From contig CAWEYG010000003.1 in the NCBI GenBank assembly GCA_963813155.1, positions 928,001 to 992,000 of the forward strand: a stretch of 64,000 bases of DNA, given 5' to 3'. Source of the stretch: an uncultured Acidobacteriota bacterium (GTDB lineage Bacteria; Acidobacteriota; Thermoanaerobaculia; UBA5066; DATFVB01). Position 1 is the stretch's first letter. The number at the start of each line of letters is the position of its first letter. Positions 8,443 to 34,546 of the stretch are shown piece by piece. The notes under the pieces are model-generated. The model saw only the letters and a program-made list of their open reading frames with translations. It did no database searches and was not told the DNA's origin. A program made the position numbers and the translations under genes.

Positions 8443-9702
8443 ATGATGTCAGCCGTCGAGCTCGAGATCGAGCTCTTTTGCCGCGGAATTCGCGTTCGTC
8501 TGGAGGATCTCCGGGGCGAGGACGCCCGCCGCATCGCGCGGACAAGAGCCGGCCTCGGCTCGGGTCTCGAGCTCGTGATCCCGAACCGGAAAAAGAAGAT
8601 ATGGGTCAACGTTCCCGTCGCCGAGCCGTTCGCCGGGAAATCGCCGTTCCTCCTGGTCACGACGGGGAAGGTCCCGTTCGTCCACGACGAGCGGAACGGA
8701 GCCGAGTATCCCGTCGAAATCCCTTCTGAGCCGGCCTGGTACTCGCGAAGCACTGCTTCCGGGGTCGAAATGAGCCGAATCGGCGTGCTACAGGGGAACT
8801 ATCTCGGCATTTACGTTTCCAACGCGTGCCTCTACTGGGCCTCGAGCCCTTCCCGCGCGTGCAAGTTCTGCACGACGGGAAGAAACCTCGGGGTCTCGGA
8901 ACAATCGCGAAAGAAGGTCGAAGACGTCGTCGAGGTGGCCCGAGCGGCTCGGAAAGAATCCGGCTCGATTTTCACCCACTTCAACACCGGCTACCACTAC
9001 GAAGAGGTCGACCGGCTCGAGCCCATCCACGGCCTCCGGCAGGCGGAACCGTTCGTTCGCGCCGTTCGTCGGGAGGTCGGTGGATTCATCGGAGTGCAGG
9101 CGCATCCGGTGCCCCGTCGCAAGTTCGGCGAGTATGACGCGTTGATCGAGGCCGGCACGGACCACTTCTCGTTCTGCTATGAATTCGAAGACCCGGAAAC
9201 GTTTGCGCGGCTGTGCCCCGGCAAGGCGCAGACCGTCGGCCAGAAGGGTTTCTTCGAAGCGATGGAGTACACGGCGGCCGCGCTCGGCCGCGGACGCGTG
9301 TCGGGGGAGATCATCGCGGGTCCCGAGTCGATCGACGCGACCAAGCGCGGCATCGACCGGATCGTCGACGCGGGAGCTTTCCCGACCGTCTGCATCTTCC
9401 GCCCGACGCTCGGGAGCGAAATGGAGAACGTTCCGCCGCCGGATCCCGAGGCGATGAAAGAAGTCTTCGCATACCTGTATTCCGCCTGCCGCCGCGCCGG
9501 ACTGCCGATCGGCATCCTCCCGATCGAAGTTTCCCTCGTCGTTCAGCCGGAGGAGGCCGTCGAGCTCGTCAAAGACGGATTTTCGACGCGAGTGTACGAG
9601 GCAAAGCTTTCGTTGATTCGGACCCTCGCGAAGCCCTACATCGCTTGGAAGACGAGGCTCCGCGCTGCGTCGAGCCCTCGAGCTAATTCCCCGGCCTCCT
9701 GA
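8443..9702 (+). CDS. radical SAM protein with expanded CX10CX2C motif (MSMEG_0568-like)
   Basis: CLYWASSPSRACKFC; RTRAGLGSG; CPGK; FRPTLGS; GGAGGA RBS before ATG 8443. Confidence 0.8.
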   Translation: MMSAVELEIELFCRGIRVRLEDLRGEDARRIARTRAGLGSGLELVIPNRKKKIWVNVPVAEPFAGKSPFLLVTTGKVPFVHDERNGAEYPVEIPSEPAWYSRSTASGVEMSRIGVLQGNYLGIYVSNACLYWASSPSRACKFCTTGRNLGVSEQSRKKVEDVVEVARAARKESGSIFTHFNTGYHYEEVDRLEPIHGLRQAEPFVRAVRREVGGFIGVQAHPVPRRKFGEYDALIEAGTDHFSFCYEFEDPETFARLCPGKAQTVGQKGFFEAMEYTAAALGRGRVSGEIIAGPESIDATKRGIDRIVDAGAFPTVCIFRPTLGSEMENVPPPDPEAMKEVFAYLYSACRRAGLPIGILPIEVSLVVQPEEAVELVKDGFSTRVYEAKLSLIRTLAKPYIAWKTRLRAASSPRANSPAS

Positions 9703-10132
9703 GCGTCCTCATGTAACGCACGACTTCCAGGATCTGGCGATCCGAAAGTGTGCGTCCGTACGGAGGCATAAGCGGAGAAAGGCCGATGCCGTTGCCACCG
9801 CGTCGGACCGCGTCCTCGAGCTGCTCGTCGAGGCGGCTCTTCTGGAACGCGGGGTCCGAGAGATCCTTTGGCTTCGGATCGAGGTTGAACGCATTGAAGC
9901 CGTCGCCCGCCCCGGTCTCGCCATGGCAGGTCTGGCAGTAGTAGGCAAAGACCATTTTCGCCAGCCGCAGCTCGTAGGAGGCCGAAGGGGCGGGGGATGG
10001 GGCCTCGGGGCTCTGCAGGTTGTTCGCGACGTTGGCAGCCACGTTTTTCGAGACCCGCGCGCCGACCGACCGCCGGCCGCATCCGGAGCCGGAAATCAGG
10101 ATGAGCGCGGCCGCGAGAAGTCGCGCCTTCAT
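9683..10132 (-). CDS. lipoprotein monoheme class I cytochrome c
   Basis: Signal peptide with lipobox GSGC, CQTCH, distal Met in LMPPY; overlaps the octaheme gene stop. Confidence 0.85.
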   Translation of the reverse strand: MKARLLAAALILISGSGCGRRSVGARVSKNVAANVANNLQSPEAPSPAPSASYELRLAKMVFAYYCQTCHGETGAGDGFNAFNLDPKPKDLSDPAFQKSRLDEQLEDAVRRGGNGIGLSPLMPPYGRTLSDRQILEVVRYMRTLRRPGN

Positions 10133-12132
10133 TTCGAAGCCTGCGCCGCGGCCGTCGGGGGAAGGCTCTCGAGGTACGACGTGATCCTCAGCGCGTCTGT
10201 GTCGGACAGGCCGTAGTTCGGGCAACGGACGTCGGCCCTCCAGCGTTGCGGCCCCTTCATCCAGTAGTAGACCCACCCCGGCCGGAGCCGCTTCGGGGTA
10301 TCCGTGAGAGGGGGTCCGACGTACCCGCCCGAAGCCCCGAGGATGTGGCAGCCCCGGCAACCGAGAGTGATGTAGAGACGCGATCCCTCGGAGGCGTCCG
10401 AGTCGCCCGCCGGCCGGCCGGCGAAGGGGTCCTCGGCGATCGCGGGATCGACGTAGAAATTCTGGATCGCGTCGGCGAGCAGCGCGGCCTGCTCGCGCGT
10501 GATCCGGAGCGACGGCATCCGTTCTTCGAGGATCGGGCGCAGCGTGTACGGCGCCGCGAGGTAGTCGACGAGCCACTCTCGTTTCACCTTGCTTCCCTCG
10601 AAGGTCAGAGGCGCCGTCGAGATGTCCTCGCCCCGGTCGCCAATCCGGTGGCAGGAGAGACAGCGGTAGCTTTCGACGAGCTTGCCGATCTGCCCGCCCG
10701 GGAGGAGGGCCGGCGCCGCCGTCGATTCCACGCGATAGCGTTCGGGAGGCGGCTCGGAGCCGAGCGAGAGAAGCGCCGTGACGACTGCGCGCGCATCCTC
10801 CGCATTCAAGCCGTAAGACGGCATCTTCAGACCCTGCGCGAAGGACCGGGGCGCGTCGATTTTCGCCGCGAGCCAGGCGGGAAGCGTCCTCGGAATGTCG
10901 GTTCGGCGCCCGAAGTCCAGGGACGAAGCCTTCTTGTCGCCAATCCCAGCGAGGTCCGGGCCGAACTTCTCGCCCCGGCCCGAAACCGACGGGTCATGGC
11001 ACGAGAGACATCCGGAAGTCCGAAAGACCTTCTCGCCCTTCTCGGCGAGAGTTTGATTGACCCGGATCGGCTCGAGGACGTTGGCCGGAGCTTCGAAATC
11101 GCGAAAGTCCTGCTCGAGGTAGGCCACGACATCGCGCGATTCGGCCTCGGAGAAGTTGAAGCGGGGCATCCGCGTCCTCGGATTGAACGCCTGGGGATTG
11201 CGGAGGAAGGCGAGCAGCCACCCGCGGGTCGCCGCGGTGGCGACGTGCGAGAGCTCCGGCGCCGCGCCCTTTCCTTTTCCTTCCACGGTATGGCAGGTGA
11301 TGCAGCGCGATTCGGAAAAGAGCTTCTTTCCGGCCGCGGGATCGCCCGGGGCCTCCTGTTCCGCGGCCCGAATCTGTCGCGCGAGCAGGTCGGGAGCGGC
11401 GAGACTGAACACATAGTGCGCCAGCTCCTCGACGCTGTCGCCCGCCAGATGGAAGTTCGGCATCGTGGCATTGGGATCGACGCCATGCGGGTCCCTGAGC
11501 CACTGGCGCAGCCAGATCCCTCCCGTTTTCATCGACTCCGCCGCGAGCGGCGGGGCTTCGGACACGAAATCTCCGTGACCGGGAACCGAGTGGCAGGCAT
11601 AGCAGCCCTTCCGGGCCATCAGCTCGCGGCCGCGGGAGAGGGTCGGCGCCTCCGGCACGGCCGCGGTGAAATGGCAACGGCCGCATCCTCCTTCGAGAAA
11701 GGAAAGGGGCAGCATCGGCGGCCCGGCGTCCCGCGCGGTCCCGTGGGCGTCCTCGAGATCGGTTGCGAGCCCCTGCCCTCCGTGGCACGACGTGCAGCCG
11801 AATCGGTCGAAATCTGCGGGCGTGTGGGCGGTTCGGGAATGAAAACCGTACGGTTCGGGAGCGCCGGCCAAGACCGCGTCGGCCGCCCCGAGGTGGCAGG
11901 TCGTGCACCTGTCCACGCGATCGTTGAAGTCGCGCAGCCAGAATTGCTGAATGGCCACCGGACGGCTCGAATACTCGCGCGCCGACTTGAGGTTTTTCGC
12001 CCGGGACGCCGCGAGCGCGAAATAACGGCGCTGAATCCCGCGATACGGCCGCAGGACGTTCTTGACCGGCGAGACCGCGAGGACCGCGAGGAAGATCACG
12101 CTGGTCGCGGCGAAGATTCGTCGGAGCGGCAC
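10129..12132 (-). CDS. membrane-anchored octaheme cytochrome c (Rieske/cytb-associated)
   Basis: N-terminal hydrophobic anchor; 8 CxxCH (CTTCH, CTSCH, CGRCH, CYACH, CITCH, CLSCH x2, CRGCH); repeated MP distal-ligand motifs. Confidence 0.9.
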   Translation of the reverse strand: MPLRRIFAATSVIFLAVLAVSPVKNVLRPYRGIQRRYFALAASRAKNLKSAREYSSRPVAIQQFWLRDFNDRVDRCTTCHLGAADAVLAGAPEPYGFHSRTAHTPADFDRFGCTSCHGGQGLATDLEDAHGTARDAGPPMLPLSFLEGGCGRCHFTAAVPEAPTLSRGRELMARKGCYACHSVPGHGDFVSEAPPLAAESMKTGGIWLRQWLRDPHGVDPNATMPNFHLAGDSVEELAHYVFSLAAPDLLARQIRAAEQEAPGDPAAGKKLFSESRCITCHTVEGKGKGAAPELSHVATAATRGWLLAFLRNPQAFNPRTRMPRFNFSEAESRDVVAYLEQDFRDFEAPANVLEPIRVNQTLAEKGEKVFRTSGCLSCHDPSVSGRGEKFGPDLAGIGDKKASSLDFGRRTDIPRTLPAWLAAKIDAPRSFAQGLKMPSYGLNAEDARAVVTALLSLGSEPPPERYRVESTAAPALLPGGQIGKLVESYRCLSCHRIGDRGEDISTAPLTFEGSKVKREWLVDYLAAPYTLRPILEERMPSLRITREQAALLADAIQNFYVDPAIAEDPFAGRPAGDSDASEGSRLYITLGCRGCHILGASGGYVGPPLTDTPKRLRPGWVYYWMKGPQRWRADVRCPNYGLSDTDALRITSYLESLPPTAAAQASK

Positions 12133-12141: not shown

Positions 12142-12846
12142 CTAGAACCCGGTTCCCGCGTTCCAGGGCCAGACGAACGACCAGCCGGGGCCGCGAAAGA
12201 AAGTCCCGATGGCCGTGAGGATCGTGGCGATCATCACGAACCAGGTCATGATCCATTCGGGCAGCGTCACGCCCGAGAGAACGCGCCGGAGGCGGCCCCC
12301 CTGCTCCCCTCCGCGCGCGGCGAACATCGCGGCCGCGACGAGAACCGTGGGCACCACGACCGGCCAGCAACCTGAGGCTCCGAAGGCCACGACAAGTGCT
12401 CCGGTGGCGGCGACCAGCGCGATCGCCTGCTTCCTGCCTTTTCCAGCCCAGAGCGGGCCCGCCGTCAGGTTGATCCGGGCATAGGGAATGACGACGAGGG
12501 AGATCACGACGAGAGCCGGCAGCAGAACGCCGGCGACGATCGGCGGAAAATAGTGGAGAAGCTCCTGAAGTCCGAGAAAGTACCAGGGGGCCTTCGCGGG
12601 ATTCGGCGTCTCGAGCGGATTGGCGATTCCTTCCAGCGGCGCGTCGAACGCGAATGCCGCGACTGCTAGCGCGATTACCACGACCTGGAACAGGATGATC
12701 TCGCGAAGGATCAGGTGGGGAAAGGTCATCACGTATCGCTCGTCGTCCCGGCGGACGGCCGGCCGCATCTGCGGGTTCAGGAGCGCGACCCGGATCGGAA
12801 CGGCGAGCGGGTCGTTGGATTCGACGAGGTCGATCTCGCGGCTCAT
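12142..12846 (-). CDS. Rieske/cytb complex subunit IV (C-terminal half of split cytochrome b)
   Basis: [32 protein letters not shown] (PEWY-equivalent), FFRGPGW. Confidence 0.88.
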
Positions 12847-13628
12847 GGAAGATCCTCCTCTCGTAGCTCATCTTCCGGCGGGCCGCCGTCTTCTTCGGGG
12901 GGACCCTGCACCCCGCCGTCCTTGCGGACTCGCCAAACGTGAACCGAGACGAACAGGAGCAGCGCAACCGGAAGCACGACGCAGTGGAGGACGTAGAAGC
13001 GGAGCAGGGCGTTTTCCGACACGACGTTTCCGCCCAGCAGCAGGAAGCGAACCTTGTCGCCGATGAAAGGCGCCTGTTTCGCCATGTTCGTCCCGACCGA
13101 GACGCCCCAGAAGGCGAGCTGGTCCCACGGCAGGAGATAGCCCGTGTACGAGAGAAGAAGAGTCAGGATCAGGAGGACGACGCCGATGACCCAGTTGAAT
13201 TGGCGCGGCGGCCGATAGGCCCGGTGGTAGAAGACGCGGAGCATGTGGAGAATCGCCGCGAAGACCATCGCGTGCGCGGCCCATCGGTGGAGGTTTCTCA
13301 GGAAGAGCCCGTTGTCCACGACGTAGTGGAGCTCTTTCATGTCCTTGTAGGCCTGGGGAACGGAGGGATGATAGTAGAACATCAGCAGGACGCCCGTCGC
13401 GACGAGAATGGCCGAGCAGGCGAGCGCGATTCCCCCGAGCCAGTAGGTGTGCCGGAAGAGGAGGGTCTTTTCGCGGACCTTGACCGGATGAACGTGGAGA
13501 AACAGGTTCCCGAAGATGATGAGCGATCGGTTCAGGTTCGTGTCGGCTACGCCGTGCCGCACGATCGAGCGATAGACCGAAGTCTCGCGAATTCTGCGCC
13601 AGAGCATTTCCATCGTCGATTCCTTCAT
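12843..13628 (-). CDS. cytochrome b6-like N-terminal subunit of Rieske/cytb complex
   Basis: RNLHRWAAH...[18 protein letters not shown]-x14-H (b6-type spacing); ATG 13628 overlaps the Rieske stop. Confidence 0.92.
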
Positions 13629-14080
13629 GCTTTGAACAGCTTTCCGTGCGGAATCACGATGCTCGTGTCGACCAGGAGATTCCCCGCCGCGTCGGAAGTC
13701 ACCTCGAGCCAGGGAAGCGGACGGGGAGCGGGGCCGTGGGAGACGTTGCCCTCCAGATCGAAGCGGCTCCCGTGGCAGGGGCAGGCGATCGCTCCCTCGT
13801 CGGAAACGAATCGCGTAATGCAGCCGAGATGCGTGCAAACGGCGGAAAGGGCGTAGATCCCGCCCGGCCCCCCAATGACGTAGGCCTTCTGCTCCTTGTT
13901 GAAACGGACCGTGCCTTCCGGATAGTCGCCCGAGCCTCCCGCGCGAAACGTGGTCGGCGGTTCGAACAGGACCTTCGGCTTGAGGTAGTCGAGCGTCACC
14001 ACGCCGGAACCGAGCGCAGCCGCCGCGCAAGCGCCGACTCCGATGCGAGCGAGAAAGTCCCGCCGGCTCGACTCGTCCAT
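13625..14080 (-). CDS. Rieske [2Fe-2S] protein
   Basis: Tat motif SRRDFL, CTHLGC and [15 protein letters not shown]; alternative TTG start at 14116. Confidence 0.93.
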
Positions 14081-14108
14081 CTCGCGCAGATTCGGATCTC
14101 TCGCGCCG

Positions 14109-15938
14109 TCAGGCAACAGCGTCCCCCTTCCTCCCAAAACTCTGCATCGTGATCGTTCCGGCCGGACACCGGGCGGCGCACAGGCCGCAGCGAATGCAGA
14201 CGGTCTCGTCCTTCAGAAAAATCGCCCCCTCGCGCCGGCCCTCGATGACGATCGGCGCGATTTCGCGCGCGGCCGGCGACCCTCGCCGGATTAAGGCCTG
14301 CGGAAGGATCTCGATGCAGTTCTCCGGGCAGATGTCCTGGCATCCGCCGCAGAGGATGCATTCCGTTCCCTGGGAGGCGCTCTCTTCGAAGATCGTGTTC
14401 GTCCAGCAATGGAGGCAGCGGGAGCCCTCGAGCCGAGCCTGCTTCTCGGAAAAGCACTCCTCGACCTCCGCGATTCCGATCCGGCGGGCGATCGGCCGGG
14501 TCGGAGGCTTCTGGCGCGGGAGGCCCTCGAAATCCAGAGGTTTGGCATAGCGGCCATGGACGTCGATCTCGACCTCGATCTCGGGCTCGTTGCGCGGACG
14601 GCCGCGCAGGAATTCGTCGATCGACCGCGCCGCCTTCTTTCCGTCCGCGATCGCGTTGATCGCGATCCGGGGACCGAACGCCGCGTCGCCGCCGGTGTAC
14701 ACGCCCGGCGCCGTCGTCGCGAGCGTGTCGGGGTTCATCGTGATCCGGCCCCCTTTGATCGCAATACCGTCTTCCGGGCGGAGAAACGAGAAGTCACCCG
14801 TCTGGCCGATCGCCATGATCGCGGTATCGGCCTCCAAAACGGTTTCCGAACCCTCCAGAAATTGAGGTGAAAAACGGCCAGACTCGTCGAAAACCCGCGA
14901 GACCTTCCGGAATTCGATTCCCGTCAGGCCGGACGGTCCGCCGAGAAAACGGCTGGGCCCGAGCCGATGTCGGAAACGAATCCCCTCCGAGGAAGCCTCT
15001 TCGATCTCGTCGCCGGCGGCGGGCATCTCCGCCTCGGATTCGAGGCAGCAGACCGTCACCTCGCGGGCGCCGAACCGGACGGCGCTCCTGGCGACGTCGA
15101 GCGCCTGCACGATCGACAGATTGCGCTCCGTGTTGACCTGCTCCCCGGCCCGGGCCGCCGTGCGGGCGACGTCGAGGGCGACGTTGCCGCCGCCGATCAC
15201 GACGACGCGCCGGCCCATTTCGAGCTTGTAGCCGAGGTTGATGTTCAAGAGATAGTCGATCCCCCGGAGCACGCCGTCGAGTTCGACGCCCGGGATCGTC
15301 AGGTCCCGGCTCCGCATCGCCCCCACGCCGAGAAAGACGGACCGAAATCCCTGCGCCTGCAGGTCCGAGATCGTGAAGTCGGTCCCCAGTCTGGTGTTGG
15401 TCTTCAGCTCGACGCCCAGGGAAAGGATCGCGTTGATCTCGAGCTGGATGATCGCCCGCGGCAAGCGATACTCGGGCACGCCGAGGCGGAGCATGCCCCC
15501 GGCCACGGGAGCTCCTTCGAAGATCGTCACCGGATACCCCATGATCGCCAGGTCATGCGCGCACGCGAGGCCCGCCGGGCCCGATCCGATCACCGCGACT
15601 TTCTCCGCATAGCGGTCACGTCGGGCTCCGAAGATCTCCGTCAGTACCGAAAAGTCCATCATGCTTTCGACACCGAACTTTTCCGTGACGAAGCGCTTGA
15701 GGGCGCGGATCGAGATCGGAGCGTCGAGCTCCCCCCTTCGGCAGACGCTCTCGCAGGGCGCCGCGCAGATCCTTCCGCAGATCGAGGCGAGCGGGTTGGG
15801 CTTTCGAGCCACCGCGTAGGCTTCCCGGAACTTCCCCTGCGCGATCAGGGCCACATACTTCCCCGCTTCGGTGTGGACCGGGCAGGCCCACTTGCAGGGA
15901 AAGTTCCGTTCCAGCCATTCGACGTTGACGCCGGTCAC
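14109..15938 (-). CDS. GltD/NfnB-like FAD/NAD(P)-binding oxidoreductase with C-terminal 2x[4Fe-4S] ferredoxin domain
   Basis: PCKWACPVH, CGRICAAPCESVC, GSGPAG, GGMLRLGVPEYRLP, GGGNVA, RCLHC, CILCGGCQDICP, CIRCGLCAARCP; GTG at 15938. Confidence 0.9.
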   Translation of the reverse strand: MTGVNVEWLERNFPCKWACPVHTEAGKYVALIAQGKFREAYAVARKPNPLASICGRICAAPCESVCRRGELDAPISIRALKRFVTEKFGVESMMDFSVLTEIFGARRDRYAEKVAVIGSGPAGLACAHDLAIMGYPVTIFEGAPVAGGMLRLGVPEYRLPRAIIQLEINAILSLGVELKTNTRLGTDFTISDLQAQGFRSVFLGVGAMRSRDLTIPGVELDGVLRGIDYLLNINLGYKLEMGRRVVVIGGGNVALDVARTAARAGEQVNTERNLSIVQALDVARSAVRFGAREVTVCCLESEAEMPAAGDEIEEASSEGIRFRHRLGPSRFLGGPSGLTGIEFRKVSRVFDESGRFSPQFLEGSETVLEADTAIMAIGQTGDFSFLRPEDGIAIKGGRITMNPDTLATTAPGVYTGGDAAFGPRIAINAIADGKKAARSIDEFLRGRPRNEPEIEVEIDVHGRYAKPLDFEGLPRQKPPTRPIARRIGIAEVEECFSEKQARLEGSRCLHCWTNTIFEESASQGTECILCGGCQDICPENCIEILPQALIRRGSPAAREIAPIVIEGRREGAIFLKDETVCIRCGLCAARCPAGTITMQSFGRKGDAVA

Positions 15939-15949: not shown

Positions 15950-17299
15950 TCAGAACACGAATCTCGCCAGGACGTACAGGGTATTGTTGTCGCTCGCATT
16001 GCGCCCGGAACCGTCGTAATTCGTCTTCGCGCCGTTGAACTTCGTATAGACCGTGTACTGCGCGGCGAGCTGGCAGTTCTGAACCGGCCACCAGGATACG
16101 TTCGCGATGTAACCCGAGCTGTTCGGGCTGCCGGTCGCGCTTCCGCTGAGATCCGCCGGGGCGAAGAGAAGCGTGTCCGGAGTCCCGGTGACGTTGAACA
16201 AGCCGATTCCTGCCGAGTAGCGGTTCCCCAGATGGTAGTTGGCGCTGGCCGCCACCGAGCTCAGGTGGTGCTTCTCCCGATCGGCACCGCCCTGGTCGAA
16301 GCTCCCGGTCAGGGTCGAATTCTCGCGGATGTATGTCCCGCGCAGCGAGAGAACGTCCGTTCGGAACAGCGTTTGGTCGTATTGCGTGTCTGCTCCCCAA
16401 TCGGTGAACTCGTCCTCGGGGCCCGAGACGGAATTCGGGTTGGACTTCACGCGCATGCCGAAGCCTCCGACCTCCAGGAAATTGTTTCCCGCGATCGTCT
16501 GCTGCCACGCGACCCGCCAGTAGGGAGCGACACCGCGAATGTTGACGGCAAAGCCCTCGCCCGACGTCGGGGCAGGACTCCCCACGTGATCCGAGCGGTA
16601 GAGCGTTCCCGCGAGGTAGAGATGGTCATCCCACATCGCATAAGCACCGAGGCCCGCCACATCCTGGCCGAGACTCGCGATGATCGGAGCCGCTGTCGGG
16701 GTCGGTGCGGAGTCGCTCGCCATGAACGGATAGCCCCAGGCCGGTGTCGTGTTCCAGAGATCCTCGACGGTCGGATTGTTGTTGAGCGTCAAACCGTAAA
16801 CGAGCTCTTTGCCTCCCATCTTCGTCAAGTTGGCATAGCGCACGTCGCTATTGTCGATGCTGAAGTGATCGTCCTGCTTGGTGTAGGTCACCTGCACGAA
16901 GCTGCCAATGTGCGTCGTCCAGGCGCCGGAAAGAAAGAGCGAGATGTCCTGCGGGAATTCGACGTTCCCATTCTGCGTGCCGGGTTGAGTCTTGTTTGTG
17001 TGCGTGTAAGAGGTTTCCAACCACGCGGAAAGAGGAAGGGTCTTGAGCAGGTTGAGGCCGGCATGGGTTTCCTTCGGCTCGTTTACGACCGCTGGCGTCT
17101 CCTGGGCGCGGTCCGTGTAGCCCAGCAGCTTGAACCGCCGGCCAGCGCTGTTGAGCTCGGGAGGAGTGGTATGGCAGCCGTTACACGCAAGTCCCGTCTG
17201 TCGAGCGAAGCTCGGGACAGATTGCGCGGTCGAGCGAAACAAGACGGCGACGGCAAAGGACACGGCGACGACGAACAGGAACGAATAGCGGTTCTTCAT
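15950..17299 (-). CDS. cyc2: Cyc2-type monoheme cytochrome-porin fusion (outer membrane)
   Basis: Signal peptide, then SVPSFARQTGLACNGCHTTPPELNSAGRRFKLLGY, matching the Cyc2 signature (PxFARQT, CxxCH, PxL, GRxFK); beta-strand-rich remainder; C-terminal Phe. Confidence 0.88.
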   Translation of the reverse strand: MKNRYSFLFVVAVSFAVAVLFRSTAQSVPSFARQTGLACNGCHTTPPELNSAGRRFKLLGYTDRAQETPAVVNEPKETHAGLNLLKTLPLSAWLETSYTHTNKTQPGTQNGNVEFPQDISLFLSGAWTTHIGSFVQVTYTKQDDHFSIDNSDVRYANLTKMGGKELVYGLTLNNNPTVEDLWNTTPAWGYPFMASDSAPTPTAAPIIASLGQDVAGLGAYAMWDDHLYLAGTLYRSDHVGSPAPTSGEGFAVNIRGVAPYWRVAWQQTIAGNNFLEVGGFGMRVKSNPNSVSGPEDEFTDWGADTQYDQTLFRTDVLSLRGTYIRENSTLTGSFDQGGADREKHHLSSVAASANYHLGNRYSAGIGLFNVTGTPDTLLFAPADLSGSATGSPNSSGYIANVSWWPVQNCQLAAQYTVYTKFNGAKTNYDGSGRNASDNNTLYVLARFVF

Positions 17300-24812: not shown

Positions 24813-25581
<769 letters not shown>

Positions 25582-25642
25582 TTCGAAAATGATGAATCTG
25601 AGGGATTCCTCCAACCGCGCCCGATGAGAAAGGGTGACGTCC

Positions 25643-25795: not shown

Positions 25796-25840
25796 GTCGA
25801 TGATCCGGTCGATGACCGGTCACCTGTTATGCTGAGCGCC

Positions 25841-26604: not shown

Positions 26605-28293
26605 GTGAATCCGACTCCCGGCCCAACGCCGGCATTTCTGCCGAAATCGTTCGTCGCCCTCCGGGGCTACTCGCGCCGTCAATTCCTGGCCGACCTTCAG
26701 GCGGGACTCGTCGTCGGCATCGTCGCGATCCCCCTCGCGCTCGCGTTCGCGATCGCTTCCGGAGTCTCCCCGGAGAAAGGTCTCGTCACGGCCGTCGTCG
26801 CCGGCTTCCTGATCTCGCTCCTCGGCGGAAGCCGGGTTCAGATCGGAGGCCCCACCGGAGCGTTCGTGGTGATCGTCTACGGCATCGTCCAGAAATACGG
26901 CGTGGACGGGCTCGCCGTCTGCACTCTCCTTGCGGGCATTCTGCTCGTCGCGATGGGGTTCGCCCGGTTCGGCGGGGCAATCAAGTTCATTCCCTATCCG
27001 GTCGTCACCGGATTCACGAGCGGCATCGCCGTCATCATTTTTTCTTCGGAAGTGAAGGACCTGTTCGGCCTCCGGATGGGGGCCGTTCCCTCGCCGTTTC
27101 TCGAGAAGTGGGCGGCATTCGGCAAGGCGTTCGCCTCGTTCTCCCCCGCCGCCGTAGGCGTTTCCACGGGATCGCTCGCGATCCTGATCTTCTGGCCGCG
27201 GATTTCGAAGAAGATTCCGGGACCGATCGTCGCGATTCTCGCCGCGACGGCCGCCGTCGCCGTATTCAAGATCCCGGTCGAGACGATCGGGTCGCGGTTC
27301 GGGGGGTTCCACGCGTCGATCCCGGCGCCGCGCTTTCCGCCCCTGAGCCTCTCGCGGGTGCGGGAGCTGTTTTCTCCCGCGGTGACCGTCGCCCTCCTCG
27401 CGGGGATCGAGTCGCTTCTCTCGGCCGTCGTCGCCGACGGCATGATCGGCAGCCGCCACAAGTCGAACCTGGAGCTCGTCGCGCAGGGCGTCGGGAACAT
27501 CGCGTCGTCGCTTTTCGGCGGCATACCGGCCGCGGGCGCAATCGCCCGCACCGCGACGAACGTCAAGAACGGGGGACGCACTCCCGTCGCCGGCATGATT
27601 CATTCGGCCACCCTGCTGTTCGTGCTTCTCCTCTTCGGCCGGTGGGCCAGTCTCATTCCGCTCGCGACGCTCGCCGCGGTCCTCGCGGTTGTCGCCTACC
27701 ACATGAGCGAATGGCGGTCCTTCGCGACTCTCCTGCGGACGCCGCGAAGCGATGTCCTGGTCCTGTTGACCACGTTCCTCCTGACCGTGCTCGTCGACCT
27801 CTCGGTCGCCGTGCAGGTGGGGGTCGTTCTCGCCGCCTTCCTTTTCATGAAGCGGATGGCCGACGTCACCAACGTCGGGGCGATTACCCGCGAGTTCGAG
27901 GAGTCGCCCGACGGCATGATGTCGGCGGACCCGGGCGGCGTCGCCCGGCGCACGATTCCCCCGGGAGTCGAGGTTTACGAGATCAACGGCCCTTTCTTCT
28001 TCGGAGCCGCCGACAAAATCAAAGACGTGCTCCAGTTCGTGGCAAAGAAACCGAAGGTCTTCATCCTCCGGCTGAGGAACGTTCCCGCCATCGACGCAAC
28101 CGGGATCCACGTGCTCGACGACCTGCATGAGAGCTTCGTGCGAAAGGGGATCGTGTTCCTGATCGCCGGCCTCCAGGCCCAGCCCTTCGCCGCGCTCGAC
28201 CGCGCGGGCCGGCTCGACCGGTACGGCCGCGAGAACCTCGCAGGCGACCTCGACGAAGCTCTTGAAAAGGCCAGGGCTTCCACCGCGAAATGA
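26605..28293 (+). CDS. SulP/SLC26 anion transporter with STAS domain
   Basis: DLQAGLVVGIVAIPLALAFA, GGPTGAF, ESLLS, GAIART, NGPFFFG, IDATG. Confidence 0.93.
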   Translation: MNPTPGPTPAFLPKSFVALRGYSRRQFLADLQAGLVVGIVAIPLALAFAIASGVSPEKGLVTAVVAGFLISLLGGSRVQIGGPTGAFVVIVYGIVQKYGVDGLAVCTLLAGILLVAMGFARFGGAIKFIPYPVVTGFTSGIAVIIFSSEVKDLFGLRMGAVPSPFLEKWAAFGKAFASFSPAAVGVSTGSLAILIFWPRISKKIPGPIVAILAATAAVAVFKIPVETIGSRFGGFHASIPAPRFPPLSLSRVRELFSPAVTVALLAGIESLLSAVVADGMIGSRHKSNLELVAQGVGNIASSLFGGIPAAGAIARTATNVKNGGRTPVAGMIHSATLLFVLLLFGRWASLIPLATLAAVLAVVAYHMSEWRSFATLLRTPRSDVLVLLTTFLLTVLVDLSVAVQVGVVLAAFLFMKRMADVTNVGAITREFEESPDGMMSADPGGVARRTIPPGVEVYEINGPFFFGAADKIKDVLQFVAKKPKVFILRLRNVPAIDATGIHVLDDLHESFVRKGIVFLIAGLQAQPFAALDRAGRLDRYGRENLAGDLDEALEKARASTAK

Positions 28294-28306
28294 ATCGTTT
28301 GCATCA
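28291..28306 (+). promoter_or_regulatory. candidate regulator box TGAAT-CGTTTG-CATCA, followed by extended -10 TGC-CACAAT
   Basis: 22 nt gap to CACAAT (28329-28334), the same spacing as at 8380. Confidence 0.6.
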
Positions 28307-28350
28307 GGGCGCGCTATGAGAGAATTGCCACAATCGCGAAGGAGGTTCCC

Positions 28351-28647
28351 ATGAACTCGACACGAAAGATGGCGGTGGCGTTTGCGGCGCTTTACGTCGC
28401 GCTCGCGCTGCTGCAGGGCCCGGCGTGGGGAAAGCCCCTCTGGGTGAAAAAAGTCAAGGACCTGGGCTATCCGGCGCAGAATTGCCTCTATTGCCACTCC
28501 GAAAAACTTCCGAAGAAGGATTCGTTCAAGCCGGATCAGTTGAACGACCGCGGAAAATGGCTCTTCGCGAAGAAGCAGGAGCTGAAGGCGAACGAAGTCG
28601 ACGTGGAATGGTTGAAGGACTATCCCGGAGGTAAGGAGCAGAAGTGA
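28351..28647 (+). CDS. small secreted monoheme cytochrome c
   Basis: Signal peptide, CLYCH, AGGAGG RBS. Confidence 0.8.
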   Translation: MNSTRKMAVAFAALYVALALLQGPAWGKPLWVKKVKDLGYPAQNCLYCHSEKLPKKDSFKPDQLNDRGKWLFAKKQELKANEVDVEWLKDYPGGKEQK

Positions 28648-29285
28648 GCCTGGGCGCGGTCCACCCCACCGGGTGGATTGGAACGTCCACGGAGTGGGCG
28701 CAAGGCCTCGGCATCGCGCTCGTTCTCATCGACCTCGGCCTTGCTCCTGGGAACGTGGATCGCTTCCCACCGTCGGGGGCTCACGTCGCATCTCAAGCAA
28801 AACCTCGTTCTGGGAATCGCGGTCCTTCCGATCGCCGTCGTCTTTCTCGGTTACTCGTACGGGCTCGAGAAATCCAAGAGCGTCGAAGCCTGCGGCGCTT
28901 GCCACGTGATGACCGCCTACGTCGCCGATCTCCGGATCCCGCGAGCGATTCGCTGGCCGCCACCCACTACAAGAACCGTTACATTCAGGAGAATCACTGC
29001 TATACCTGCCACAGCGATTACGGAATGTTCGGGACCGTGAAGGCCAAGTGGGAGGGGCTCGGGCATGTGGTCCATTACACGCTGCACGATTACAAGCTGC
29101 CGTTGAAGATCCATCATCCCTACTCGAACCTGCGTTGCCTCGGTTGCCACGGCGAGTCTCAAAAGTTTCTCGACCCGAAGAAGCATTCCGCCGAAGACCA
29201 GCGAAACCTGATCGCCGGCCAGATGTCCTGTCTCGACTGCCACGGCCCCGCTCATCCCAAGTTCGAGTTGAAGGCATCCCGATGA
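28644..29285 (+). CDS. NapC/NirT (CymA-like) membrane tetraheme cytochrome c (frameshifts near 28745 and 28938)
   Basis: N-terminal TM helices; SKSVEACGACHVM in one frame, then CYTCH, CLGCH, CLDCH. Confidence 0.75.
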   Translation: MSLGAVHPTGWIGTSTEWAQGLGIALVLIDLGLAPGNVDRFPPSGAHVASQAKPRSGNRGPSDRRRLSRLLVRAREIQERRSLRRLPRDDRLRRRSPDPASDSLAATHYKNRYIQENHCYTCHSDYGMFGTVKAKWEGLGHVVHYTLHDYKLPLKIHHPYSNLRCLGCHGESQKFLDPKKHSAEDQRNLIAGQMSCLDCHGPAHPKFELKASR

Positions 29286-29517: not shown

Positions 29518-31456
29518 CTACTGGTGCCAGCGCAGGAAAATGCCGTAGCGGTTCGCGTCGTACGAACCGAGGCCGTTCTCCGCGGCCAGGGACTCCCGGT
29601 ACTTGTCCCGTCGCCACTCGGCGATGAACGACGCATTCTTCGTCACGTCGACCGAGGCGCGGATGCTCGCGCGGTCGATCTTGAACGGGAACGAACCGTC
29701 GTTCTCGGAACTGTCCGTACGCGCCGTCGATCGAGACGGGAGATAGCAGGAGCGAGAGGCCGCCCTCGAGGGAACGGCCGTCTTCCTTGTGAATCGAGCG
29801 GTCCGGGGCGAGGGTCTGAGGAACGACGAACAGGATCTTGCTGTCTGCCTGATATTTCTCGGCGGAAAGGTGCAGGCGAATGAACTTTGGCCGGCCACCC
29901 CTCGACGGTCCCCCCGTACTGGCGGATCCGGCCGTCGTAGCCGATCCCCGTCCTGTCGTTCGAGGCGTCGATCTGCTCGGCGGTCGCGCTCAGCTGGAAG
30001 ACCTGCTTCAGGCTCCACGCCGCGCGAAGGCGATACCGATCGCGGTCGAGGAAGTCCGTTCGAAGGACGGGTTCGTCGGCGCGCTCGCGGCGGTAATCGG
30101 CTCCGAGCGTCACGCCGCTCTGCGAAAAGGTCGCCCCGGCGTCGAGTGTCTTGATCTTTCGATGAAACGTCCCGCCCTGTCCGCCGGGAAGGACGATTTC
30201 CGACGGGTCTTCGTCGACGGTGACGTCCTGATTCGTCTGCGACCATCCGGCCCGCACCGCGAAGGGTCCGAATCGGCGAGCCTCGATCCTCGCGTCGAAC
30301 ACCTCGTCGGTCCGTTCGATCGCGGTGTCGGCCTGCAGGACCGAGAGAAGATTCTTCGGGTCCACGCCGCCGAACGTCACCGAGTCGAGATACAGGCTGG
30401 AGACGAGCGCGAAGCCGTCGAGCTCGGTGTGGTTCTTCGAGTAGCCGGCGATGAAGTCGATCCCTTCGGCGAGGTTCGCCTCGACCCGGCCGCTTCCCCG
30501 CCACATCGTGTTGCGGGCGCGGGCGGACGTCGTGTCGGAGAGGCCGCCGAAGAACCGGCTGATCTCGAACGACACGAGGTTTCCGGAGAGATCTTCCGCG
30601 GACGACGTGTCGGCCTCCGCCGCGGCATGGATGTACGAGCCGACGAGCTTGATTCGATCGCCGAGCCTTCCGGTTACGTACGCGCTCGTCACCGGCGTGT
30701 TCGCGTCGTCTTTCGTCGTTCGGTTGAAATCGTTCAGGGAAACGGGCACCCCGAGGACCGTTCCCGGGTCGTTGCCGTTCCCGGCCCCCGCCACGAGACC
30801 CTGGGTCTCGACTTCGTGGAGCTTCCTCCAGCCCTGGATGACCTGCCCCGAGATCGGCCCGGCGTCGAACGCCGCGCCGACCCGGAATTCCTCGTCCCGG
30901 TCGTCGAGCCGGTCGGTGAGACGGAACTCGTCCTCCCCGACATGGTAAGTGTTTCGGCCCGGCCCCTCGTCGCGGTTCCGCGTGTATCCGAGGATCGGCG
31001 TGATCACGGCGCCGGGGAACAGCCTCAACTCGACGTCGAGAACGTTGCGAGTCCGGCTGTACGTCTGTTCGCCCGGCACGATCCCGTCGCCGAGAAGCGG
31101 ATTCGCGAAACCGGGAAGAGCGCTGTAGAGCTCCGTTCGCCGATAGCTCAGTTGAAGGTCGTACTTGCCCGAGAGGCCCGAGCGGACGTTCAGCGACCCG
31201 GCCGGACCCGCGCCGAGGTCGCTCGCGTCGACGCGGAACGTGTCGAAGAATGAGGTCGGTCCGGGTGCGGTCACCAGGAAGGACCGCAGAAGGAATCCTT
31301 CTCGCTCGTTGATCTGGCTGCGGTACATCTGCTCGTTGCCGGAGACGTCGACGAAGCGGTATCCCATCTCGAGGTCGAGAGGAAGGGCCTGCGCGGAGAC
31401 AAAGCGTCCCGCGCGACCGCGACAGCGGCGGCGAAGAGGCGGCGGGCGTTCTTCAT
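29518..31456 (-). CDS. mtrB: MtrB/PioB-like outer-membrane beta-barrel (frameshifts near 31420, 29880, 29700)
   Basis: Follows the decaheme gene; GYRFVDVSGNEQMYRSQIN start; alternating beta-strand pattern; ends YGIFLRWHQ. Confidence 0.7.
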
Positions 31457-31466
31457 CTGTTCTCTC

Positions 31467-32402
31467 TCACTTCAGGAGCGTCGGCGACCGGTTCGAGCCG
31501 TGGATCGCCGTGTGGCAGGTCGTGCAGTTCTGGTATCGCGGCAGCAGGAGGTTGTGAAACGACGGCGGCTGCGATCCCAGCGTCGTCGCCGTCAGATTCG
31601 AGTGGCACTCGAGGCAGAGCTGGTCGACCCGGGCGCGGATCAGCTGCCGCGGGTTCGACGAGCCGTGCGGCTGATGACAGCTCATGCAGTCTCCGGCCAC
31701 GCCCGAGACGTGCTCGAAGACGAACGGTCCGCGTTTCTCCGCATGGCAGGACACGCACGGCAACTCGTCCGCCCGGGTGCGGCGGAGCGCCGACTCGCCG
31801 CGCTTTCCGTGCGGGTCGTGGCAGGAAGCGCAGTTCATTCCTCCCTCGAGGCGATGCGCGAACGGCTTGTCGCGGAACGACGCGGCCTGGCCCGGATGGC
31901 AGGAGGCGCAGAGAACGACCGATTCCTTCTTGAGAAGAGAGGCCGCCTTCGGTTCCGACGCGTGCAGGGAATGGCAGCTCAGGCAATTGACCGCCGCGGA
32001 GTTGGCGTGAACGCTGTTTCGGCGGGAGCGATGGTCCGTCGTCTGGTCGTGGCAGGTCAGGCAGAACGCCGCGCCGTCGGGACCGCGCATCGGGCGGGCA
32101 ACGGGCTTCTCGCCGGACGAGGCGACATGCTCCGCCGTCTCGCCGTGGCACGTCGCGCAGACGGCGTCTCCCGTGATCCCTTTCTTCGCGAGACTCAGAA
32201 GATGCCCGTGCGGATTCCGCGCAAAGACTTTCGCTTCGTCGTGGCAGTCGGCGCACGCGACCGTCTCCACTTTCGCCGGGGCCGGAGCTTCGACAGGGGG
32301 AGTCGGCTTGTCCGCCGCCTGCTCGGCTGCAAGCAGAGAAAGAGAGGCGGCGCCGAGTCCGAAGACCAGGAACGCCGCCAGGACTCCCCGATTGCTCTTC
32401 AT
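31467..32402 (-). CDS. mtrA: MtrA/DmsE family periplasmic decaheme cytochrome c
   Basis: Signal peptide; 10 CxxCH; CHAEKRGPFVFEH, CHQPHGS, CTTCHTAIHGSN signature. Confidence 0.88.
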   Translation of the reverse strand: MKSNRGVLAAFLVFGLGAASLSLLAAEQAADKPTPPVEAPAPAKVETVACADCHDEAKVFARNPHGHLLSLAKKGITGDAVCATCHGETAEHVASSGEKPVARPMRGPDGAAFCLTCHDQTTDHRSRRNSVHANSAAVNCLSCHSLHASEPKAASLLKKESVVLCASCHPGQAASFRDKPFAHRLEGGMNCASCHDPHGKRGESALRRTRADELPCVSCHAEKRGPFVFEHVSGVAGDCMSCHQPHGSSNPRQLIRARVDQLCLECHSNLTATTLGSQPPSFHNLLLPRYQNCTTCHTAIHGSNRSPTLLK

Positions 32403-32433
32403 TTCGCCCTCTTCGATCCGACGCGCCTCCGGA

Positions 32434-34546
32434 CTATCGAGCGTGGACCTTGTCGACCGCGAAGTCGTCGTCGGCCGCGTGGCACGACGCGCAGGACTTC
32501 GCCGAAGGGCGCGGTCATCACGAACGCGTGAGCCGCCGCTTCCTGGGTGTCGTGGCAACCCAGGCAGGCCGCCGCCGTCGTCTGCTGGGGCGTGTACCAC
32601 TCCTGCGGCGGAGGAGGAGTCTGAACCGCGAGGTTCGTCAGCGGCAGCGGGGGCGTGTACGTTCCCGCCAGGTGGCACTTCTGGCAATCGCGCAGATCAC
32701 CGGGAAAACGCACGTCGTTGAAGTTGTTCACGCTTCCGCCGAATCCGTAGATCGTGAAGTCCTTCGTGAGGTTCTCGCCCCGGTGAATGTGATGGATCAG
32801 CCGCTGGAACGAGATCGACTCGGGCGAGCCCTTGCCCGCCGGGCGCTGGGAGCCGTCGTTTGCGTTCGGATTGTGGCACGCGACGCACTCTTCGATCACG
32901 AAACGCTGGCCGCCATGGAGCGCGAGCCTGTCGTGGCAGACGTTGCATTTCGCGATGTCGACGACGGCGCGGCGGGGAACCGGGCTTGCGTCGGTCACCG
33001 GGAAATAGAAGATGGGATTGGTCGCGCCTTCGGTGACGGACGGATTCTGGTCCGAGTCGCCGACGTTGATCATCACGGTGCGACGGACGTCCATGCTCGC
33101 GAGCCATGTCCCGGAGGCGCTCTGCGGCAGAGCCTCTTTCAGCGTGTACGTGGCGATCGTTCCGTTGAAAGACGCGCCGTCGGCTCGCTCGCGGAACGGG
33201 GACGCGAGGCTGTAGTCGACCGTCGGGCCGCCGACGACGACGTTGACGTTCGAGCCGAGCGTCTTCGGATCGACGACGGTGCCGTCGTTGTTCGTGATCT
33301 TGAACGTGACCGTCGGCGTCTGGCCCGGCTGCGAGTTCGTGACGCTCAGGATCTGGGCGTTCAGCCCCTTGAGCTGAGTCGACTTGAGCGGAATCGTGTG
33401 GGCGCCGATGACGGATGCATCGAACTCGACCCCCTGGGGCTGATGGCACGTTGCGCACTTCGTGTCGTCGAGTTGAATCCCCCCCTTGTGATTCGCGCCG
33501 GTCACGAAATTCAGGTCGTCGTGGCACGAGCCGCACGCGGCGGCCCCGGGATACGTGTAGTAGTTCGGGCCCTGCGTGGCGGAAGCCACGTGGCACTTCG
33601 TGCAATTGCGGACGTCCTGGGGAAACTCGACAGTCGAGAAGTCGTTCACGCTCTGGCCGAACCCGATGATCTGGTACGGAGTGCCGGCCTGGACGCTCGG
33701 CAGGTTCGCGCCGTCGTGGATCTTGTGGATCAGGACCTTGAAGTCGACGGTGTTTCCCGTGTCCGGGTCGACGGTCTGGGGCTGGTGGCAAAGGACGCAG
33801 AGCTTGACGTCCTGGCGCGCTCCGCCGTGAGCCGAGAGCGGATCGTGGCAGCTGTTGCAGGCGGCGTTGTTCGTTTTGTCCCAGACGTCCGTGACGGCGG
33901 CGCTGTCCGGCCGAAAGTCGAATTCGACGTTCGCGTAGTAATTCTTGTCCAGGATCGCGGGGGTGACCAGGTCGCGCGTCGCGTAGATGCCGAGCGTCGT
34001 GGTCTTCGTCCGGTCGAAGCTCGCGGGAAGGGCCGTCTTGAATCGGTAGGTCGCGTGCCCGAGGCCGAGGTCGGTGAAGCCCGCGTTGCCGGCCGCGTCG
34101 GTGCCCGCCTGAATCGCGGTCACTCCCGGATGCGGGCTCGACGTCGGAGTCGTCACGGTTCGCGTCGTGTACGCGGTGTAGTGTCGTGTCGCCGGATCCC
34201 ACCACGCAAGAATGAAGCTCGGGCTGACGGCGCCCGGCGTGACATTTCCGAGGCGATCGAGCGGCTGGCCCTTGTCGTCGGTCAGCGAAAAGTCGACGAC
34301 GGGCCGGAGATCAGCCGGGATCGTGATGCTGTTGACCGTCACGTGGAGGCCGGGCCGTATGTATCCGATCTGGTCCTCGGACATGTAGAGCTCGGCATCG
34401 TTCGGGCTGTAGACCTTTCGCGCGTTGGCGGAGCCGCTCCTTCCGCCGAAAGTCGGGAGGTTGGGGTTCACCACGCCGAGGCGAACCGGAACAGCAATGC
34501 CGGCCGCCGAAACCCCGAGGAAGATGGCCCGTTTGAAAAAATGCAT
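32434..34546 (-). CDS. mtrC: OmcA/MtrC family decaheme cytochrome c (frameshift near 32505)
   Basis: 5+5 heme arrangement separated by beta-rich domains; CNSCHDPLSAHGG, LIHKIH, RRAVVDIAKCNVCH, LIHHIH; the 10th heme ESCASCH and stop at 32434 appear after a 1-nt correction. Confidence 0.85.

Follow-up and report, generated by a model that had tools for sequence, protein, structure and literature searches.

Two outer-membrane electron conduits of different kinds, a Cyc2-like haem-porin and an MtrCAB-like complex, are encoded side by side in an uncultured Acidobacteriota bacterium: do they belong to one system, and which way would it move electrons? The stretch analysed here (the window) comprises 64,000 nt, positions 928,001 to 992,000 of contig CAWEYG010000003.1, from a Thermoanaerobaculia-labelled soil metagenome-assembled genome (MAG; GCA_963813155.1). 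Two electron-conduit modules, A (Cyc2) and B (Mtr), span 7.6-34.6 kb of the window. We hold, with slightly better than even confidence, that the locus is a real, mosaic extracellular-electron-transfer island, composed of a core mtrCAB locus and an inserted Cyc2/Rieske block that are proposed to share one regulon.

Genes were chosen by third-position G+C (the window has 65% G+C) and named with Pfam and NCBIfam. Module A runs on the minus strand from 19038 to 9683, as follows:

18649..19038, minus strand: orf129, 129 aa, no family; first gene behind the motif site at 19106-19123(-)
17960..18805, minus strand: PAS-LuxR regulator 1 (PF00989, 43.4 bits; PF00196, 60.7 bits); the real start is probably later in the open reading frame (ORF)
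17302..17886, minus strand: cupredoxin with a CarboxypepD_reg-like domain (PF00127, 24.2 bits; PF13620, 30.8 bits)
15950..17299, minus strand: predicted Cyc2-family fused monohaem cytochrome-porin, 449 aa
14109..15929, minus strand: GltD-like NAD(P)-binding Fe-S flavoprotein (PF07992, 98.9 bits; PF14691, 64.3 bits; Fer4; NF009410, 436.8 bits against a cut-off of 516); single frame against locus L019 of genome G007
13625..14137, minus strand: Rieske [2Fe-2S] protein (PF00355, 45.1 bits)
12843..13630, minus strand: b6-type cytochrome b, start approximate (PF00033, 147.4 bits; NF040969 ExtP, 261.5 bits against a cut-off of 290)
12142..12846, minus strand: cytochrome b C-terminal/subunit IV-like protein (PF00032, 25.7 bits; NF040970 ExtQ, 54.5 bits, below cut-off)
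10129..12132, minus strand: octahaem cytochrome c, N-terminal membrane helix; L019 orthologue 69%, single frame
9683..10132, minus strand: cytochrome c with one haem, probably a lipoprotein (begins MKARLL...SGC); PF13442 at 38.4 bits, cytochrome 579 (NF033864) matched weakly (28 bits, cut-off 280)

Module B begins at 28351 with a monohaem and a tetrahaem gene on the plus strand, converging with three contiguous minus-strand genes:

28351..28647, plus strand: 98-aa secreted monohaem cytochrome; its orthologue lies 3' of mtrB in locus L020 (genome G058)
28644..29285, plus strand: predicted NapC/NirT-family tetrahaem cytochrome (CymA-like), frame breaks at c.28736 and c.28950
29521..31457 (end c.), minus strand: mtrB, predicted 26-strand barrel gene, frame breaks at c.31413, c.29881 and c.29708
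31467..32402, minus strand: mtrA, periplasmic decahaem cytochrome of the MtrA/DmsE family, 311 aa, 10 CxxCH (TIGR03508, 201.8 bits against a cut-off of 192.2)
32434..34546, minus strand: mtrC, OmcA/MtrC decahaem cytochrome (TIGR03507, 472.1 bits against a cut-off of 209.3; PF22113, 166.6 bits), frame break at c.32501 before haem 10

An earlier note on this DNA had placed both conduits inside 25 kb, which the gene coordinates bear out, and had counted more than 35 CxxCH motifs. That count is only just right: seven credible cytochrome genes hold 35 when frame breaks are read through (mtrC nine in frame and one past its break, mtrA ten, octahaem eight, tetrahaem one plus three across frames, and one each in the Cyc2-like gene, the monohaem gene at 28351-28647 and the monohaem lipoprotein gene; mtrB has none), and a doubtful Cys-rich ORF at 20704-21027 would raise the total to 36. 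Real genes of the window outside the island have two. The earlier note passed over the six frame breaks of module B, the Rieske/cytochrome b/NAD(P) part of the Cyc2 operon and the variable 5.7 kb that separate the modules.

The Cyc2 family is defined by a signal peptide, one CXXCH, the Cyc2-unique motif AXPXFAR[Q/K][T/Y], a PXL four residues past the haem site, a 16-strand OprO/OprP-like porin and a minimum length of 365 aa (Keffer et al. 2021, PMC8406198). In the 449-aa protein the N-terminal signal sequence MKNRYSFLFVVAVSFAVAVLFRSTAQS stands ahead of the haem domain, with a helix at residues 4-20 in an AlphaFold2 (AF2) model. The N-terminal region reads SVPSFARQT-GLA-CNGCH-TTP-PEL: S27-V-P-S-F-A-R-Q-T35 fits the family motif at eight of nine positions, the sole CxxCH is C39-N-G-C-H43, invariant over 51 aligned homologues, and P47-E-L49 starts at the fourth residue after H43. 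The consensus of the 51 diverse homologues, AVPSFARQT, fits at all nine positions. The model, built on the same 51-homologue alignment (predicted local distance difference test, pLDDT, 88.6; predicted template modelling score, pTM, 0.85), has 16 strands and a small N-terminal haem domain, and Foldseek returned 16-strand porins, including OprO (4rjw, TMq 0.50) and OprP (2o4v, TMq 0.49). By the definition of Keffer et al. the protein is a Cyc2-family member as judged from sequence and model, an assignment at the level of family and fold; its function as an iron oxidase is putative. Homologues are numerous (2,623 representatives at 50% identity with E ≤0.001, 404 of them reaching 1e-30).

The signal sequence, single CXXCH, motif, PXL and porin of 16 strands are shared with Cyc2 of Acidithiobacillus ferrooxidans, Cyc2PV-1 of Mariprofundus and Cyt572 of Leptospirillum. 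The window protein differs from the known Cyc2s in a degree of conservation that is unusual among porins (60-70% identity within Acidobacteriota) and in having a Rieske/b/NAD(P) complex, not a cytochrome oxidase, as its operon partner. Acidobacteria homologues have been linked to Cyt572 (PMC10654088), which is in the cluster described as functionally the most uncertain of the family, distant homologues being uncertain in function generally (PMC8406198).

Module A is a conserved operon whose genes keep company with cyc2 as a set. In 80 loci retrieved with the Cyc2 protein, most of them from Terriglobia MAGs and many truncated by contig ends, cyc2 has as neighbours the cupredoxin gene in 66, the octahaem cytochrome in 49, the subunit IV-like protein in 48, the flavoprotein in 45, cytochrome b in 30 and the monohaem cytochrome in 21; a PAS-LuxR gene lies upstream of the operon in four. 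The cupredoxin gene is 5' of cyc2 here (window 15950-17886) and directly 3' of it in 10 of 12 loci inspected in detail.

What would the operon's inner-membrane complex be? Its cytochrome b is split into a b6-type and a subunit IV-like protein in adjacent genes, and directly downstream, in the place of cytochrome f, comes the 667-aa octahaem cytochrome with its eight CxxCH. Of 82 PDB matches of the Rieske protein the two best were 9rk4 (E 4.8e-21) and 9rk3 (E 3.6e-17), the Rieske proteins of two complexes of Kuenenia stuttgartiensis (Kuste4569, Kustd1480; PMC12954380). These complexes (Kuste4569-4574 and Kustd1480-1485) likewise have a b6-type cytochrome b with a subunit IV-like protein, a multihaem cytochrome c for cytochrome f and a cytoplasmic Fe-S NAD(P) oxidoreductase; the proposal is that they split the electrons of quinol between NAD(P)+ and a high-potential acceptor (PMC12954380). 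The window version lacks an anammoxosome and an HAO-like subunit. Its operon also codes for an outer-membrane haem-porin and a cupredoxin, so that its high-potential partner would be extracellular iron, not nitrite. From its composition, the Rieske/b/flavoprotein/octahaem set is thus a predicted anammox-type complex with an NAD(P) oxidoreductase, and the NAD(P)H role is itself only a proposal for Kuenenia (PMC12954380).

The rus and petI operons of A. ferrooxidans (PMC8790237, PMC10654088) offer a second comparison, having in common an outer-membrane Cyc2, a blue copper protein, c cytochromes and an NAD(P)H-linked bc-type complex; that Cyc2/rusticyanin/bc chain is thought usable both ways. Here, in contrast, all parts are in one operon and NAD(P) would be handled by a subunit of the bc-type complex, not by NDH-1. 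The window organism is moreover from soil (run X1), no acid habitat being indicated, and has its oxidase-linked version elsewhere, with a paralogous Cyc2. This second Cyc2-family gene (G000:C3:58366-62676; L130:6366-10676; G000 being the present genome) lies ~870 kb before the window and encodes 439 aa with GIPAFARKT..CTSCH..PVL. It is preceded by a gene with a CarboxypepD_reg domain and followed by a dihaem cytochrome c and a frame-broken COX1, a layout like that of the rus operon.

The mtrC product has its tenth haem site, CASCH, past the frame break; orthologues in G001, a genome of the same genus, and in the unpublished genome G002 have 10 CxxCH in a single frame. To identify the barrel gene we relied on the intact 645-aa MtrB protein P0272, to which the three frames of the window gene are 99.2%, 100% and 90% identical (the last stretch runs across breaks). 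Its AF2 model (46 homologues, pLDDT 79.4) is a 26-strand barrel, and the best of at least 500 Foldseek matches was 6r2q_B, chain B of the Shewanella Mtr complex (E 9.1e-14, TM 0.65/0.65), followed by OprC at 0.47. Because of this fold match, the gene order and the two decahaem partners, the system is assigned, from sequence and model, to MtrCAB.

The tetrahaem gene has CGACH after LVLGIAVLPIAVVFLGYSYGL, the N-terminal membrane helix, in one frame and CYTCH, CLGCH and CLDCH in another; its orthologues have four CXXCH in one frame. The window copy scores 21.3 bits on the NapC/NirT domain, below the cut-off of 24.1, because it is frame-broken: intact orthologues reach 39.5 bits (G002) and 37.1 bits (L020) on PF03264. 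It would encode a candidate quinol dehydrogenase of NapC/NirT type (CymA-like). The spacing between the tetrahaem/monohaem genes and mtrB varies, from ~235 nt here to a 2.5-kb P-type ATPase gene in G002 and ~9 kb in G001 (L103:1145-3682; L099:8400-17300).

The mtrC-mtrA-mtrB order, the two decahaem cytochromes and the 26-strand barrel are those of Shewanella MtrCAB (6R2Q) and of the Acidobacteriia 'Group 5' systems (Baker et al. 2022, PMC8805035), and in Group 5 too a tetrahaem gene lies beside mtrB. The tetrahaem protein reported there is predicted to be periplasmic, with no inner-membrane quinol oxidoreductase reported nearby, whereas that of the window is of predicted NapC/NirT type with a membrane helix; the lineage here is labelled Thermoanaerobaculia, not Acidobacteriia. 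The window also departs from known MtrCAB systems in an MtrC N-terminus without a lipobox cysteine and in a barrel unseen by Pfam, NCBIfam and PDB sequence searches.

The two modules share an 18-nt motif spotted by eye in intergenic regions, with ends that form an imperfect palindrome (TGAT-N8-ATCA). Features that carry it, with the remaining genes of the island, are:

7595..8353, minus strand: VIT1-family iron/manganese transporter (PF01988, 197.2 bits), first gene of the 11.5-kb block; absent between TauE and USP in G001
8443..9702, plus strand: radical SAM protein (NF045502, 163 bits against a cut-off of 125); motif site at 8380-8397
19106-19123(-) and 19138-19155(+): two divergent motif sites between orf129 and USP, ranking 9th and 7th genome-wide
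19188..20126, plus strand: tandem universal stress protein (USP), start approximate (PF00582, 97.4 bits); syntenic with PAS-LuxR regulator 2 in G001 and G004
20132..25839, no strand: 5.7-kb variable segment (DUF4136, Cys-rich ORF, cupin, CBS, BON, MacB permease, SDR); motif sites at 20132-20149(+) and 23394-23411(-)
25829..26503, plus strand: PAS-LuxR regulator 2 (PF00196, 61.6 bits), paralogue of regulator 1
26605..28293, plus strand: SulP/DauA-type anion transporter (PF00916, 276.6 bits)
28291..28308, plus strand: motif site before the monohaem/tetrahaem unit, score 30.8
34597..34614, minus strand: motif site ~50 nt before the mtrC start, score 31.0, the genome's best

The pattern T[GA]A[TA][TG]C-NN-T[TC]GCATCA has five matches in the 3.8-Mb genome, four of them in the window. 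A position weight matrix (PWM) was built from eight sites, four from the window and four from relatives, and run over both strands of the whole genome. Only nine sites score at least 17.5, and seven of these nine best sites are in the island. Among the five best sites that were not used in training, three are in the window, namely those before USP (18.7), the radical SAM gene (18.1) and the operon of orf129, PAS-LuxR1, cupredoxin and Cyc2 (17.5); the best of the five (26.7) is 33 nt before ccmE, between ccmC and ccmF. Measured from the gene starts, the motif is 33-65 nt upstream of mtrC, the monohaem/tetrahaem unit, USP, the radical SAM gene, the orf129 operon (weaker), two units of the variable segment and ccmE. 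The CcmE protein behind it (G000:C1:638275-638667; L127:2275-2667) ends ...LLVKCPSKYQ, with a cysteine in the place of the haem-binding histidine motif of CcmE, as in the CXXXY variant of some anaerobes and archaea.

In relatives, sites occur before mtrC (G001, G004 and G005), the monohaem gene (G001 and G004), USP (G004) and the radical SAM gene beside cyc2 (G004 and G058); G058 has a 32.1-bit site ~690 nt upstream of cyc2. A control of 400 kb of evenly spaced G004 loci had no site above 16.5. The upstream motif that the earlier note had reported as shared therefore exists and is far rarer than chance. We see good evidence in these sites for a conserved cis-element, part of a predicted Mtr/cytochrome regulon extending into the inserted block. 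Three genomes of the order have this radical SAM gene next to cyc2, always preceded by the motif (window 8443-9702; L105:c.17476-18530; L020:7862-9133); overall it is found in only two of the 80 Cyc2 loci.

Two other readings of the motif were discarded. A general promoter is ruled out by the empty control and by the paucity of genome sites at 17.5 or more. Sigma-54 promoters have the form TGGCAC-N5-TTGC, with 5-nt spacing; inspection rules out this type, as the TGATTC and TTGCA parts of the motif are ~2 nt apart.

How did the modules come together? In G001 (assembly 78% complete) the order is Fpg-TauE-USP-PAS-LuxR2-SulP-monohaem...mtrB-mtrA-mtrC, and G004 has the same genes in slightly different order. 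Since module A is absent at the mtr site in both, an 11.5-kb block (VIT1, radical SAM, module A, PAS-LuxR1, orf129) has been inserted beside an ancestral mtr locus, and the co-location here is the outcome. The VIT1 gene, which the earlier note had put at the edge of the island, is indeed present (PF01988, 197 bits), but it sits 1.3 kb beyond the start drawn there, behind the radical SAM gene. An MtrA homologue is found in 37 of 41 sampled genomes of the order. A Cyc2 orthologue (E up to 1e-100) is found in 12 of 175, all 12 also with MtrA; G002, an unpublished genome, has none. In G058 the genes cyc2-cupredoxin-dihaem-mtrC-mtrA-mtrB-monohaem-tetrahaem follow one another on one strand within 9.5 kb (L020).

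Searchable literature, supplements and subscription journals aside, held no description of cyc2-mtrCAB adjacency or of an Acidobacteria Cyc2-Rieske/b operon. The adjacency, the one-strand cluster of G058 and the inclusion of ccmE behind the motif appear to be undescribed, the parts themselves being of known kinds. The nearest parallel is with the Gallionellaceae and Sideroxydans ES-1, in which, as here, one genome has monohaem-porin and decahaem porin-cytochrome conduits (PMC10734462); seven Gallionellaceae MAGs also have MtrC (PMC10734462). That family belongs to another phylum; here the conduits lie next to each other, have a cis-motif in common and, in G058, are joined in a single co-directional cluster.

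Several observations weigh against the reading of the locus as one working island under one regulon. Four of the seven island sites had served to train the PWM. The predicted link of the motif to the Cyc2 operon, strong in G058, is weak here (17.5), and no site above 16.5 was seen before the operon in G007 (L019) or directly before cyc2 in G004. It is by position alone that the PAS-LuxR paralogues suggest themselves as possible readers of the motif; their genes share a 171-nt inverted match, 70% complementary, which a repeat search of the island returned along with chance repeats only. A survey of genomes for co-location, which the earlier note had put forward as a check, shows that it is not conserved: cyc2 is near mtr in two of the 12 Cyc2-bearing genomes of the order, the present one and G058. 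The Cyc2-like protein matches no Pfam or NCBIfam model. These libraries contain MtrB/PioB models, and the window's MtrB likewise has no family in either (E up to 0.01); its intact orthologues have no Pfam family (G001, E up to 0.01; G058, E up to 0.05), and there is no PDB sequence match at E up to 1. Module B has six frame breaks in 5.6 kb of coding sequence against none in ~8 kb of module A, and the indels are not in long homopolymers. In short-read contigs of soil run X1 there is, among the indels listed, no change at exactly 32497 (0 of 6.15 depth); a neighbouring position could still hold one.

The frame breaks are the first difficulty. With G001 and G002, both intact, as reference, six are seen. 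In mtrC a base has been gained near 32501; mtrB has extra bases near 29881 and 29708 and has lost one near 31413, in the signal peptide; and the frame of the cymA-like tetrahaem gene changes twice. They could mean that the Mtr module is decaying in this strain, the three genes being pseudogenes and the Cyc2 module the only one working. The confinement of all six to 28.7-32.5 kb with module A free of breaks, a density well above the genome-wide rate and the position outside long homopolymers speak for decay; sequence context does not support homopolymers as a cause. Contigs from soil run X1 (Logan short-read contigs, 97-99.7% identical), however, differ by exactly one base, lost or gained, at 28736, 29704, 29883 and 31412, those of X3 and X4 are a base shorter at 32497, and those of X1, X3 and X4 all lack one at 28736, so that the indels are absent at five of six sites in the contigs of these three runs. 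P0272 differs from the longest frame at only four of 510 residues, implying recent purifying selection.

Moreover, other genes of the assembly are broken too. A genome-wide frame control (315 ORFs from 24 G004 loci, 205 with orthologue-like matches) counted 21 junctions where the frame changes over 79,632 aligned aa (~1 per 11 kb). They cluster in places: 2.7 kb of C3 hold four and 2 kb of C1 hold three; TauE, CcmF and one COX1 are also split by frame. Given this indel-prone assembly, the near-identical intact contigs and the intact 99%-identical MtrB, the breaks are most likely long-read consensus errors, and decay of the Mtr module is unlikely. Further likely single-base errors of frame affect TauE, spread over two ORFs (window 6780-7653), an SDR match lost past residue 208 (24807-25592) and a PALP enzyme without its N-terminus (4737-5405), and the split CcmF and COX1 genes are at G000:C1:638609-641429 and C3:61461-62550.

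The second difficulty is direction. The earlier note had proposed metal-oxidising and metal-reducing machineries in one circuit: Cyc2 would take electrons from Fe(II) under microoxic conditions, MtrCAB with the CymA-like protein would give them to Fe(III) under anoxic ones, and one regulatory circuit would switch between them. Family membership, adjacency and a common motif (which includes ccmE) hold up; the assignment of uptake and export and the switch itself do not find support. Both conduits and the motif are present, the regulators have PAS domains, and one Rhodoferax isolate oxidises as well as reduces iron (PMC8552755). The genome has three haem-copper oxidase loci, and these together with the rus-like layout of the second Cyc2 paralogue, beside a dihaem cytochrome and COX1, make aerobic Fe(II) oxidation conceivable. 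Against a switch, the Rhodoferax strain is reported to have mtrABC and to lack cyc2, and Cyc2 with rusticyanin and bc1 has been proposed as an Fe(III)-reducing chain in anaerobic A. ferrooxidans, Cyc2/rusticyanin being the terminal Fe(III) reductase (PMC8790237). Mtr homologues are described as working inward, and in Gallionellaceae the reason for retaining both Cyc2 and Mto/MtrC may be that they act in the same direction on different Fe(II) substrates (PMC10734462); the function of distant Cyc2 homologues is, as said above, uncertain according to Keffer et al. As the motif sites are at similar distances before all units, the same response and co-expression, rather than opposite responses and switching, are suggested. 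Sequence does not fix the direction of electron flow in either conduit, and a switching circuit seems to us improbable, about as much so as decay.

Somewhat less probable still is chance juxtaposition, in which a mobile 11.5-kb block came to lie beside the mtr locus with the modules independent and under separate control. It would fit the absence of the block at the site in G001 and G004 and the spread of the genes elsewhere: cyc2 and mtr are 1.28 Mb apart in G004 and on different contigs in nine of the 11 other Cyc2-bearing genomes (several assemblies are fragmented). Module A is also autonomous in many Terriglobia, with no Mtr genes nearby in 79 of 80 loci, and each module has a PAS-LuxR gene of its own. 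However, the block's radical SAM gene has the mtr-type motif in three genomes, cyc2 and mtrCAB of G058 are united in one co-directional cluster with a strong site ahead of it, and at the block ends neither an integrase nor a transposase nor a tRNA gene was seen, tRNA genes being only at 42.9, 60.1 and 61.7 kb.

Finally, the adjacency could be a chimera, for which the earlier note had called for a look at the reads. Short-read contigs of runs X1-X4 were used (X2 gives sparse cover, and X2-X4 contribute small shares), and they tile and bridge the region, so that the adjacency is real in the population. Contigs of X1 tile both modules at 97-99.7% identity and even depth (~5-11). One of them joins 20131 to 25840, from USP to PAS-LuxR2, skipping 5.7 kb barely covered by X1; this segment (20132-25839) is skipped by X3 contigs as well and is missing from G001. 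One copy of the motif falls on its left edge, and a second precedes the BON gene. The longest record for the Cyc2 protein P0001 (99.3% identical) and for the intact MtrB P0272 is 16,778 nt in each case, a common length that would fit a single record without the 5.7-kb segment. Mis-assembly of two organisms or two distant loci, for which one could cite a MAG contamination estimate of 3.76% and gaps between X1 pieces at 18877-19067, 26093-27039 and 28854-29377 (among the longest pieces listed), is very improbable in view of the even depth with a bridging contig, an mtr-side gene order as in G001 and G004, the uniform GC of the window (0.61-0.68) and the common record length.

How might a mosaic island under one regulon work? 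Its core is the order's near-universal mtrCAB with the monohaem cytochrome, the NapC/NirT tetrahaem candidate quinol dehydrogenase, a PAS-LuxR regulator and the stress protein. The inserted block brings Cyc2, cupredoxin, the Rieske/b complex with its NAD(P) flavoprotein and octahaem cytochrome, a monohaem cytochrome, the second PAS-LuxR regulator, radical SAM protein and VIT1. The motif would mark one regulon as its operator or promoter element. Its readers would probably be the PAS-LuxR paralogues, acting on an oxygen or redox signal, and both conduits would come on at the same time as cytochrome maturation. Solid or large substrates would fall to MtrCAB, connected by the tetrahaem cytochrome to the quinone pool, and dissolved iron to Cyc2, connected by the cupredoxin and c-type cytochromes to the Rieske/b complex, which would link quinol, the high-potential partner and NAD(P).

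A bolder form of this, in which Cyc2 and MtrCAB are two terminals of one PAS-LuxR-driven circuit, extracellular iron is the high-potential partner of a quinol-bifurcating Rieske/b complex and MtrCAB exchanges electrons with solids, we regard as speculative and rather improbable. If true, iron handled at the cell surface would power NAD(P)H production directly or, with the flow reversed, would give up its electrons to the quinone pool; this would be electron bifurcation coupled to extracellular iron, a form undescribed for any organism.

Acidobacteriota are abundant in soil and peat, and their role in iron cycling is poorly understood. The locus offers a handle in three respects: a compact putative regulon that ties MtrCAB, a candidate quinol dehydrogenase and cytochrome maturation to the neighbourhood of the Cyc2 operon; a natural single-cluster form of cyc2-mtrCAB in one relative (G058); and a Cyc2 porin encoded with a predicted NAD(P)-linked Rieske/b complex, which would link surface iron and NAD(P). 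For surveys of iron genes it also holds a caution, as 'Cyc2 = oxidation, Mtr = reduction' cannot be read from gene names.

Downstream of the island the window contains a molybdopterin oxidoreductase with a monohaem cytochrome c (38966-41765) and a thioredoxin-TPR protein with DsbD (43130-45831).

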